Assembly: GCF_044324875.1 (NCBI RefSeq)
Contig: NZ_CP172185.1
Origin: Escherichia coli
Lineage (GTDB): Bacteria; Pseudomonadota; Gammaproteobacteria; Enterobacterales; Enterobacteriaceae
Direction: 5' to 3' (one strand)
Length of the DNA: 64,000 nt
Shown: positions 31,242 through 32,717 of the stretch, piece after piece
Numbering within the stretch: the stretch's first letter is position 1
How the letters are laid out: each line of letters starts with the position of its first letter
Notes under the pieces: model-generated
Seen by the model: the letters and a program-made list of their open reading frames with translations, nothing else
Database searches by the model: none
Told to the model about the DNA's origin: nothing
Program-made: the position numbers and the translations under genes

Positions 31242-32717
31242 TCATTTTTTGCTTTTTTGTACTTCCTTTTCGTATTTGTTCCACATAGCCTTTTGCTCTT
31301 CGGGACTGAGTGCTGTATTACCACTGGCAAGAAACACCTTGAACGCTTCTAACTCAAGCCCTGGGTTGTGGCTTTTCCAGCGGCGAAAACGCTTAGCGTG
31401 ATTATCATCAAGAGTGAAACGCTTTTGCTTATTCTTTGAACCTTGCGGCCTGCCTCTCGACCTCTGCTCATCATCAATACCGATATCTATATACTCAATA
31501 TTATCTGTAAGAGATCTGGCTTGCCATTCATCAAAAACATAAACAGTCTGTGTTTCAGTACTGTCAAAATCCCTTGAAATTCCTCGTAGTACGAACTGGT
31601 GTAAACTTTCGTACTCCCTCGCAACATGTATCGCCTCGCCGTCAATCTCAAAGAACAATTCGCACTGTTTAGCCTCTGTTTCAGAGGGACGCATACAAGC
31701 GAGCCAGACGCACGTGAGCAAGTGTTGGTACTGGTTAAATCCTCTGGCATCCGGGCTTATCTCTGTGCCGTTCCTTAGGCTCTGAGAATCGCTTTTGTTC
31801 TTCGTCCAGTAGAAATCCTGCCCCTCAAGTTTCTCATCAATAAATGAGTATATTTTTTGTACTTTATCAGGGTTGTTAGTCTTCCATGTCTTTGATAGTT
31901 TGTTGTTTTTTGAGAAGTAATAAACTTTTAATCTGTTTTTGAGTTCAGTTTTTCGTGTCAGTAATCCTTCAAGTTCAGTACTTTCAAAGAGTTCTTTATT
32001 GCCTTTATAGATCAATGACTTTTCAAAATTCGCTCCGAGAAAGGTGATTGATACGTCTTTGTACTTACTGAGATCTTTCCATGCGGTAATATTAAGCTGT
32101 TCCTTTTTCGCATCGGTAAAGTACTCATTATTCATGATGAACATATCATTTTCGTTAATTGCTGGTAGCTGGTTCAAAATATTCTTCAGTACTTCCCCTT
32201 GTATTTCTGGTTTTCTTTCTGCCGCAATATACATATTTCTGTCATCTAATGACTGTACATTGTGTATTAATGAATTAAGAATTACATTTTTTATATTAGT
32301 ATCACCCTCATTAATATTCTGAAAAGAATGAAAATTAGTTACGTCATCAATATAAACATTCCACCCGGACAATAATTCAACAGAAATTTTAAAAAAGGTT
32401 TTGTCTGTGATAAGTAATGTCGATGAATTCGAACTATTCAAATAATCGATAACAGTACTAATTACACTTTCATCTCTCGGAACTGAATCTGTAATAATAT
32501 ACTTACAATCATTAATTTGTTTTGCTGTCTGTTTAATAAGTTCTTGTGTGTTCTGCACTAAAATATATTTTTCAGTACTATTGTTAATTAAATTACATAT
32601 AGCAGTAGTTTTACCTGAACCACAAGGGGCGGAGACATACTTAAATTTATTATAAATAGGTGTAGGATTAATCATTTGTACACGCTCCATATTGATTAAT
32701 TTAGAAAGGTCAGCCAT
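31242..32717 (-). CDS. P-loop NTPase, helicase-like, of unknown function
   Basis: 491-aa ORF; Walker A VSAPCGSGKTTAI near the N-terminus, Walker B-like WNVYIDDVT; basic C-terminal region RSRGRPQGSKNKQKR. Confidence 0.6.
   Translation of the reverse strand: MADLSKLINMERVQMINPTPIYNKFKYVSAPCGSGKTTAICNLINNSTEKYILVQNTQELIKQTAKQINDCKYIITDSVPRDESVISTVIDYLNSSNSSTLLITDKTFFKISVELLSGWNVYIDDVTNFHSFQNINEGDTNIKNVILNSLIHNVQSLDDRNMYIAAERKPEIQGEVLKNILNQLPAINENDMFIMNNEYFTDAKKEQLNITAWKDLSKYKDVSITFLGANFEKSLIYKGNKELFESTELEGLLTRKTELKNRLKVYYFSKNNKLSKTWKTNNPDKVQKIYSFIDEKLEGQDFYWTKNKSDSQSLRNGTEISPDARGFNQYQHLLTCVWLACMRPSETEAKQCELFFEIDGEAIHVAREYESLHQFVLRGISRDFDSTETQTVYVFDEWQARSLTDNIEYIDIGIDDEQRSRGRPQGSKNKQKRFTLDDNHAKRFRRWKSHNPGLELEAFKVFLASGNTALSPEEQKAMWNKYEKEVQKSKK

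Follow-up and report, generated by a model that had tools for sequence, protein, structure and literature searches.

The anti-phage systems of Escherichia coli are carried in large share by small 'integrase-only' islands, and how these move and persist is an acknowledged open question (PMC10121019). Such defence islands have been described without a known means of mobilization (Hochhauser et al., PMC10121019). Helicase-plus-origin modules in integrative elements are of a known kind. In pipolins a large serine recombinase (LSR), a small resolvase and a replication gene of the element's own have been read as circularization plus replication (PMC11551731), and for SCCmec the combination of integrase and helicase is taken as a sign of replication in work cited in PMC11724360. 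In IEE, a protein of an enterobacterial integrative element, a superfamily 2 (SF2) domain is associated with an AEP primase-polymerase (PMC9943667). Here we describe a helicase-like gene, and the hairpin-dense non-coding unit that begins at its stop codon, in a stretch of 64,000 nt from E. coli (NCBI RefSeq assembly GCF_044324875.1, contig NZ_CP172185.1). This whole stretch is termed the window, and positions are numbered from its first nucleotide. Comparison of related islands indicates that the gene belongs to the backbone of a mobile-island family and not to its cargo, and that it is obligatorily linked to a cis element of conserved structure. The features of the gene and of the unit are as follows.

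31242..32717, minus strand: helicase-like gene, an open reading frame (ORF) of 491 aa, with its probable start at M15 (32675)
32598..32636, minus strand: SF2 motif I/Walker A, VSAPCGSGKTTAI, aa 28–40; G33 and K36 invariant, ResIII and DEAD matches confined here
32340..32363, minus strand: motif II/Walker B, WNVYIDDV, aa 119–126; D124 invariant
31734..31757, minus strand: motif V-like SPDARGFN, aa 321–328, in the second RecA-like domain of the model; G326 invariant, N328 nearly so
31569..31598, minus strand: motif VI-like QFVLRGISRD with arginine fingers, aa 374–383; Q374, R378 and R382 invariant
31245..31463, minus strand: C-terminal tail, comprising an AT-hook-like basic patch and a three-helix segment (aa 440–491), from conservation and the model
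31419..31463, minus strand: basic patch RSRGRPQGSKNKQKR, aa 419–433, read from the ORF translation
30755..31241, minus strand: non-coding unit of 487 nt, dense in hairpins, that begins at the helicase stop codon; may be an origin, a priming site or a structured RNA
31061..31215, minus strand: best-supported sub-region of the unit, from covariance model R1 and metagenome linkage

The coordinates given for the gene in a preliminary description of the window are exact and the 491-aa frame runs without interruption; that description omitted the strand, which is minus. The true start is more probably M15, giving a protein of 477 aa, because GGAG lies 9 nt 5′ of the M15 ATG and aa 1–18 have a predicted local distance difference test score (pLDDT) below 50 in the AlphaFold2 model. 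RefSeq/PGAP places the start of the identical gene of strain MSI001 at M15, with a product of 477 aa. The first 24 codons of the ORF (window 32646–32717) are 100% identical to positions 617–690 of the 9.9-kb Logan contig L008, and the two proteins are 55% identical overall and 57% over aa 25–127. This difference indicates a breakpoint of recombination close to where the gene begins, and a backbone that has evolved as a mosaic. The helicase gene is disrupted in some of the related islands. In an E. coli genome (L005, 13838–15271) it is split into coding sequences of 330 aa and 142 aa, and in Providencia rettgeri RB151 (L015, 10001–11472) there is an apparent frameshift. Both fit the decay of a mobility gene once an island has been domesticated.

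From its motifs and predicted fold the protein is a two-RecA SF2 helicase-like NTPase, a member of the uncharacterized phage and mobile-genetic-element family phrog_2467. The match to this family, listed in PHROGs as 'unknown function', is nearly full-length (E 6e-38, aa 21–449 against profile positions 6–470 of 502). A search of 1.8 billion cluster representatives at a threshold of E<=1e-3 gives 431 relatives, with a conserved core of ~aa 23–430. In alignment A2, comprising 59 sequences down to ~20% identity with a mean column identity of 22%, the invariant residues are G33, K36, D124, G326, Q374, R378 and R382, corresponding to SF2 motifs I, II, V and VI. The last three are invariant also in primase-fused relatives (alignment A3). 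The nucleotide-binding motifs of SF2 proteins are both present, as GSGKT in motif I and VYIDDV in motif II, and so are the two tandem RecA-like domains with the arginine finger of motif VI. The three segments quoted in the preliminary description (VSAPCGSGKTTAI, WNVYIDDV and RSRGRPQGSKNKQKR) are all present and are more than chance resemblances, G33, K36 and D124 being invariant in the 59 sequences. The ~350 aa in which it recognized no motifs are not free of them; the rest of the SF2 core lies there, with SPDARGFN (containing G326) and QFVLRGISRD (containing Q374, R378 and R382).

The AlphaFold2 model derived from A2 has a pLDDT of 91.3 and a predicted template-modelling score (pTM) of 0.80. 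It has two alpha/beta domains, an insertion rich in beta structure that follows motif II and spans aa ~128–215, a low-confidence basic linker and three C-terminal helices. The closest structural relatives are XPD, Rad3 and DinG, all of which are DNA helicases. The likeness to XPD and DinG lies in the predicted fold, and the protein is not a member of that family. Comparison with viral predicted structures using Foldseek gives many uncharacterized phage proteins of ~480 aa with the same fold, among them proteins of Atu_ph07, phiRSL1, Fnu1, Motura and H101.

Matches to characterized families are restricted to the region of motif I. Pfam ResIII (E 1.4e-4) and DEAD (E 3e-3) align with aa 26–74, and the family profile matches XPB, UvrB and NS3 in the PDB at motif I only; a search of the PDB with the single sequence gives no match. 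NCBIfam and PADLOC give motif I of Cas3 only, with PADLOC Cas3d at E 0.0066 over 44 residues. Pfam finds no nuclease domain in the protein. The preliminary description held that clear homology to a terminase or a housekeeping helicase would refute it, and no such family is matched in PHROGs, Pfam or NCBIfam. RefSeq names for the protein are 'type III restriction endonuclease subunit R' and 'DEAD/DEAH box helicase family protein'. Both rest on the region of motif I, and the former is an over-extension of the match there. Identification as a type III Res subunit was rejected, with ResIII matched over aa 26–74 only, no adjacent Mod gene and no Pfam nuclease domain. Neighbouring genes encode a recombinase and hypothetical proteins, and none of them a methyltransferase. 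Res subunits, which join a helicase domain to a C-terminal endonuclease and are encoded beside a Mod methyltransferase, are about twice the size of this protein.

The tail beyond the helicase core carries the basic patch for which nucleic-acid binding had been suggested at the outset. The patch itself is conserved. Its GRP core is invariant in relatives down to 50% identity and is seen in 7/7 pairwise alignments down to 43% identity, and the extended motif GRPxGSxNK..KRFxRW..FxxFL..N.LS is likewise kept to 43%. On this conservation we propose that the tail may be a nucleic-acid recognition module.

The ORF-free stretch 3′ of the helicase stop codon is 983 bp in length. It has a mean column identity of 94% across islands with different integrases, exceeding that of the surrounding genes, and an island with a helicase of merely 55% identity keeps it at 88%. 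The first 487 nt are bounded by a 21-nt inverted repeat (31221–31241 and 30755–30775). In Tenebrionibacter (L010) similarity ends exactly at the right arm of this repeat, so the 487 nt behave as a unit. The unit is dense in hairpins, with a folding z-score relative to shuffled sequences of −8.1 for the helicase-sense strand and −5.7 for the other, and the regions 3′ of homologues of 51% and 43% identity are similarly hairpin-dense (z −5.9 and −6.7). The best-supported part, 31061–31215, comprises a GTCC palindrome (31161–31211), a long hairpin of 18 bp (31087–31143) and a 10-bp hairpin GAGTGCTCAC-GCA-GTGAGTACTT (31062–31084).

Among close relatives only, covariation over the whole unit is weak, with four compensatory pairs and a covariation term of +1.44. 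A covariance model (R1) was constructed for the 5′ 156 nt of the unit, and detects the element directly after divergent helicases of 43–61% identity (L021, E 1e-9; L015, 1e-5; L018, 4e-5). In the joint alignment, which was fitted to the model so that pairing is somewhat inflated, 97.2% of cells are paired and 25/34 pairs are changed on both sides. None of 500 shuffles reaches this number (0/500), and controls with the alignment slid give <=10 such pairs. The strong covariation is seen in two hairpins, is restricted to the 5′ sub-region, and appears after addition of the divergent copies found by the covariance model. G-U pairs lie solely on the helicase-sense strand, which argues that it is a single strand of this sense that functions, either as RNA or as single-stranded DNA.

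The linkage between helicase and element extends into metagenomes. Scanning 241 million records for the 10-bp hairpin gives 21 contigs, and in 19/19 of those long enough to show it, the gene immediately upstream is that of the helicase. These helicases are 54–93% identical to that of the window, and other backbone genes are sometimes absent. Taken with the covariance-model matches, the linkage of the helicase to the structured element is obligatory. The unit has no match in Rfam, the non-coding region has no blastn similarity to plasmid or phage records, and the conserved hairpin is not found in 2.9 million IMG/VR viral contigs. Several identities for the region were tried and set aside: a known RNA family (no Rfam match in the unit), mimicry of a helper oriT (origin of transfer), pac or ori (no blastn match of the non-coding region in plasmids or phages), a DnaA-box origin (no boxes in the unit), and an invertible promoter switch for the small recombinase of the island (a chimeric junction query finds an inverted junction in 0/51 element-carrying E. 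coli genomes). Contig L012, from Raoultella, has two copies of the element, upstream (9720–9854) and downstream (11475–11630) of the helicase, scoring 47 and 191 bits respectively with R1. The second copy recalls the ori and crr of P4.

Longer members of the family connect this helicase module with priming. Ten relatives of 780–990 aa were scanned against PHROGs. All contain phrog_2467 (10/10), with E-values of 1e-35 to 1e-50 and identical invariant residues, and 9/10 also match DNA-primase PHROGs (16950, 1156 and 9765). The primase half is N-terminal in eight of the fused proteins and C-terminal in one. A Pfam scan finds Prim-Pol in 1/22 long relatives (E 5e-17). On these matches the longer relatives join the helicase module to AEP-type DNA primases. 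One of the fused genes is surrounded by small genes, and its contig includes a gene for a tail sheath; another is in an element with a tyrosine integrase.

A megablast search of 5,426 complete E. coli genomes with the island that contains the gene finds the whole island, at the ppdD locus, in six. Carrying strains include MSI001 and 94-3024/ATCC O104:H21. Many more genomes have only the block comprising the small recombinase, a 119-aa gene, a 346-aa gene, the non-coding region and the helicase, at 85–97% nucleotide identity. This block occurs at three loci in E. coli (ppdD, rcnR/thiM and yggR/yggS), and each has its own integrase and cargo. The integrase at ppdD is the 520-aa LSR. The rcnR-thiM islands, which lie by a thiamine pyrophosphate riboswitch, have a tyrosine integrase at the far end and carry either TIR plus NACHT or Hachiman (HamA/HamB). 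At yggR-yggS there is a 598-aa serine recombinase, 29% identical to that of the window, with a cargo of an AAA ATPase pair, a system of Cap4-type nuclease with AAA_23, or a STAND ATPase. A fourth type of integrase, a tyrosine recombinase of 356 aa, precedes the helicase in Raoultella and Phytobacter. Homologues of the helicase with 55–93% identity are found in Enterobacter, Klebsiella, Citrobacter, Cronobacter, Yersinia, Pectobacterium, Dickeya, Serratia, Hafnia, Morganella and Providencia. Integrases and defence cargo are thus swapped around a helicase that stays constant, which is the signature of a gene for maintenance or mobility. The literature search found no paper naming these proteins by accession.

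The island of the window lies in an E. coli-type chromosomal context (pdhR-aroP-ampE-ampD-nadC ... ppdD-hofB-hofC-guaC-coaE). The GC content falls from ~0.52 to 0.30–0.42 between ~24.8 and 34.4 kb. Both junctions can be read directly, and define an insertion of 9,585 bp (24812–34396) inside codons 13–16 of ppdD, bounded by an imperfect 12-bp core ATGGTGGTYATT. Along the plus strand the order is 428-aa gene, 367-aa gene, small recombinase, 119-aa gene, 346-aa gene, 983 bp free of ORFs, helicase-like gene and large recombinase. The features outside the helicase and its unit are these.

24800..24811, plus strand: left junction core ATGGTGGTCATT in ppdD codons 13–16, from the junction reading and the drop in GC
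25182..27571, plus strand: cargo slot with overlapping 428-aa and 367-aa genes; no Pfam, NCBIfam, PADLOC or PHROGs match
27709..28296, minus strand: small serine recombinase of resolvase/invertase type, 195 aa; phrog_125, 7e-59
28815..29174, minus strand: 119-aa gene with a signal-peptide-like N-terminus; no NCBIfam, PADLOC or PHROGs family
29218..30258, minus strand: 346-aa gene with hydrophobic N-terminal segments; no NCBIfam, PADLOC, PHROGs or Pfam family
32793..34355, minus strand: LSR of 520 aa, the island integrase, at the island/ppdD junction; phrog_95 integrase, 1e-42, with weak CcrB and XisF matches
34397..34408, plus strand: right junction core ATGGTGGTTATT, where the truncated ppdD resumes, from the junction reading

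The LSR is the next gene upstream of the helicase on the same strand, 75 nt from its ORF, as the preliminary description had noted in placing the two side by side. Scans of the island with NCBIfam, PADLOC and PHROGs find no relaxase, terminase or capsid- and packaging-related families. The small serine recombinase is a second constant gene of the backbone, 92–100% identical among E. coli islands and 76–90% in Providencia and Pantoea. L008, L012 and L013 carry a paralogue of ~30% identity, and a resolvase remains linked to helicases of 43–51% identity (L021, and L009 at a contig end). The small recombinase is proposed to be a multimer resolvase. Across the window and loci L002–L006 the position of the cargo relative to this gene varies. 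The yggS islands have it between the recombinase and the 119-aa gene, and those at ppdD and thiM have it on the far side of the recombinase. This enzyme may join in cargo exchange besides resolution. The 119-aa and 346-aa backbone genes usually, and not always, accompany the helicase. The 428-aa/367-aa pair is, by virtue of its position, a candidate for an unknown anti-phage system; sister islands hold TIR plus NACHT or Hachiman in that slot. A faint match of the 367-aa protein to PD-T4-9_C (E 0.009) is the sole trace of a known family.

An AT-rich block (GC ~0.26) at 30486–30590 contains five ATTGAT, ATCGATCAA-type repeats at spacings of 32 and 42 nt, and four GATC. It is situated ~230–330 nt upstream of the 346-aa gene; it is this gene, and not the helicase, that it accompanies, and 93 nt of it also match the prophage-linked contig L018 (5149–5240). 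It could be a set of iterons or a regulatory region. At the insertion site ppdD is split (window 24764–24847 and 34397–34801). Its first 16 codons, part of the N-terminal prepilin cleavage/methylation region according to the RefSeq name of the fragment, lie to the left and are fused to island sequence; what is left of the gene forms an ORF of 134 aa that begins anew at an internal Met. Normal processing of the PpdD pilin is unlikely in this strain.

Among the distant islands, that of Phytobacter has as its cargo (L013, 14964–20333) a single 1,789-aa protein combining a CRISPR-associated-type PrimPol (E 2e-25) with a reverse transcriptase like those of Drt3a and group II introns (E 5e-19). A LexA/CI-like repressor with an S24 peptidase lies near the helicase and the element in two of them (L021, 4063–5052; L013, 12087–12701), directly after the element in L013 and ~2.5 kb downstream in L021; there is no such gene in the island of the window. 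These repressors hint at induction of the SOS type. L008, whose helicase is 56% identical, has no integrase gene and shows a perfect inverted terminal overlap of 30 nt (1–30 and 9915–9944). This could be an effect of the assembly graph (k−1, if k = 31), or could reflect flanking inverted repeats.

We propose, with confidence that we would place about midway, that the protein is a replication helicase, probably the initiator, of ~10-kb integrative islands that ferry anti-phage cargo, and that it acts upon an adjacent structured origin or priming site. In this scheme the integrase, here the LSR, would excise the island as a circle. The helicase would recognize the adjacent hairpin unit through the AT-hook-like patch and the helical C-terminal tail, and would open that DNA, or translocate on it, in an ATP-dependent manner, after which primase and polymerase of the host or a helper would copy the circle. 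The hairpin unit would be either the origin or, on the helicase-sense strand, a priming site similar to those of PriA at primosome assembly sites (PAS), a role suggested by analogy from the strand specificity of the hairpins. The small serine recombinase would then resolve the resulting multimers. As the island has genes for neither primase nor polymerase, and the family hardly occurs in plasmids, such replication would probably be transient and rely on a helper or on the host. A replication module is the most economical reading of a stand-alone helicase beside a cis site in the company of an integrase and a resolvase-type recombinase, and we judge its chances to be about even. A role in replication or mobilization of the island had been raised in the preliminary description, and is favoured by the constancy of the gene in the backbone, the primase fusions (9/10) and the linked cis element.

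A number of observations weigh against replication. In 72,556 plasmids the family is all but absent, with two weak alphaproteobacterial matches only, and a bona fide Rep would not usually show this pattern. Genes for a primase, a polymerase or a single-strand-binding protein are lacking in the island. No circular contig was found among the island-sized ones tested (L007–L009, no terminal direct overlap), and DnaA boxes are lacking in the unit. Covariation and G-U pairs fit an RNA equally well, so the element need not be an origin, and the fitting of the alignment to the model has raised the apparent pairing to some extent. Some AEP-fused SF2 proteins, such as IEE, act in end-joining and not in replication (PMC9943667). 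Three further readings were rejected: a plasmid Rep (two weak matches in the 72,556 plasmids), a circular episome represented among the contigs (no terminal direct overlap in L007–L009), and a packaged satellite (hairpin pattern not in IMG/VR). The sole homologue on a viral contig, L018, is 49% identical and lies ~6 kb from terminase genes, either inside the prophage or beside it.

The same structural data might be explained by a structured RNA, the 487-nt unit being transcribed as a 3′ extension of an integrase–helicase transcript or from its own promoter, and working with the helicase or regulating it. The restriction of G-U pairs to the helicase-sense strand, the strong compensatory change in two hairpins and the stronger folding of that strand (z −8.1 against −5.7) would all be expected of an RNA; moreover the GC content is 0.41 at 30001–32000 compared with 0.30–0.35 over most of the island, and there is no terminator-like site between the helicase stop and the unit. 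However, Rfam has no matching family, the TATAAT in the loop of the palindrome is not kept in L010 and L011, no terminator is evident at the 3′ end of the unit on the helicase-sense strand, and G-T pairs are tolerated in hairpins of single-stranded DNA too, while the nearest structural relatives of the protein (XPD, Rad3 and DinG) unwind DNA. We consider the RNA explanation unlikely; in it the RNA might be, for example, a primer resembling ColE1 RNA II, a scaffold or guide, or an immunity or regulatory RNA resembling P4 CI RNA. The bolder form, in which the XPD-like SF2 helicase and a large, structure-conserved non-coding RNA of ~490 nt, represented in no database of RNA families, make up a new two-part module, with the RNA as self-made primer, scaffold or guide/decoy, is doubtful; if true, it would define an undescribed class of small, integrase-swapping, defence-carrying elements in Enterobacterales. 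The hairpins could instead belong to a site that serves when a helper conjugative element or phage moves the island, similar to oriT, pac or a single-strand initiation (ssi) site, the helicase processing or re-priming the transferred strand and not driving vegetative replication. Both oriT and ssi elements are typically hairpin-rich and strand-specific. The islands lack transfer genes and are nevertheless found in Escherichia, Enterobacter, Klebsiella, Cronobacter, Yersinia, Pectobacterium, Providencia and Morganella, mobilization of 'integrase-only' defence islands is a recognized puzzle (PMC10121019), and islands with an oriT and no relaxase are common (bioRxiv 10.64898/2026.01.13.699239). 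Yet a transfer site is improbable given that the non-coding region has no blastn similarity to plasmid or phage records, that the hairpin is missing from the 2.9 million IMG/VR contigs, that the island has no relaxase, terminase or capsid-related match in NCBIfam, PADLOC or PHROGs, and that the primase fusions of relatives favour replication.

It is somewhat less probable still that the helicase is itself a defence or anti-defence effector, sensing or degrading foreign nucleic acid alone or with the 346-aa and 119-aa proteins, in the manner of the helicases of Hachiman, DISARM, type IV-A CRISPR and DdmDE. The gene does sit in an island with defence cargo, and its near-absence from plasmids would suit an anti-plasmid role. 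But the only PADLOC match, at E 0.007, covers 44 residues, the 491 aa contain neither a nuclease domain nor that of another effector, relatives are fused to primases, and the gene is split in L005 and apparently frameshifted in L015; furthermore it is constant, with the recognized defence systems in a separate, variable slot. The suggestion in the preliminary description of a stand-alone defence effector is unsupported on the PADLOC and slot evidence. Less probable again, to the point of being very unlikely, is an accessory function in recombination or repair, in which the helicase would assist excision, integration or end-joining without replicative unwinding, as the SF2 domain of IEE does. 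In the LSR-type islands the gene is immediately downstream of the integrase and co-directional with it, and IEE provides the example of an SF2 domain able to act with no unwinding (PMC9943667). Against this, the IEE helicase is of another family (phrog_16), with motif I alone aligning at an hhalign probability of 9%, and an obligate structured element would be left unexplained. The same helicase also accompanies unrelated tyrosine and serine integrases, which counts against a specific partnership with one recombinase.

The constant core of helicase and covarying hairpin element, common to at least four integrase types and many genera, offers a testable handle on whether a helicase and its site drive replication of an excised circle. 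It gives phrog_2467 a first functional context and sets right the RefSeq name 'type III restriction R subunit', which is misleading. The helicase and hairpin together may also be used as a marker to find the variable slot and new defence systems within it, such as the 428-aa/367-aa pair.

In comparison with known systems, three aspects are new: the XPD-like SF2 helicase family, which is uncharacterized; the tightness with which it is coupled to a covarying hairpin element that has no counterpart in Rfam; and a family of islands in which at least four integrases and many defence systems are exchanged around the helicase–hairpin core. The helicase differs from XPD, Rad3 and DinG in several ways. 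Identity to S. tokodaii XPD (2vl7) and the DinG of type IV-A CRISPR (8s35) is merely 8–13%, and the protein is much shorter, with a C-terminal tail of its own that contains the GRP patch. In the XPD family a four-cysteine Fe-S domain lies between motifs Ia and II, and is absent in some DinG proteins. The Fe-S cluster of XPD is not present here, C41 and C71 being the sole cysteines between motifs I and II and neither being conserved; A2 has no invariant cysteine column in its 59 sequences. XPD-type proteins are further marked by an inserted Arch domain and 5′–3′ polarity; the insertion in the present model is the beta-rich one that follows motif II. Compared with the primase-helicases of phrog_2467, which are found in phage early regions and integrase-bearing elements and are themselves uncharacterized, the protein stands alone, with no primase domain and no primase gene in the island. 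The E. coli IEE is an analogue rather than a relative, and an IEE-like helicase was rejected as an identity for the protein. IEE belongs to phrog_16 (1e-56), BLASTP gives E 0.10 over 37 residues and hhalign a probability of 9%, and ~40 residues around motif I align with the present family and nothing more.

PriA is an SF2 helicase that recognizes a hairpin on one DNA strand to start priming, as at the n′ site of phiX174 and ssiA of ColE1. The strand-specific, covarying hairpins of the present unit fit this pattern, and with no relationship to PriA in sequence or family the comparison is one of analogy only. Relative to the phage satellites, i.e. phage-inducible chromosomal islands (PICI), P4-like elements and PICI-like elements (PLE), the island has an integrase and a putative replication module and no capsid, packaging or interference genes. 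The helicases of the known satellites and replicative islands are SF3, MCM-like or of other families, and here the protein is of an XPD-like SF2 family. The logic of an integrase, a replication gene of helicase type and an adjacent cis site is nevertheless shared with Rep and ori of the Staphylococcus aureus pathogenicity islands (SaPI), with alpha, ori and crr of P4, with Cch beside the serine recombinases CcrAB in SCCmec, and with pipolins. Pipolins, with LSR, resolvase and piPolB, have in common with this island the pairing of an LSR and a small resolvase.

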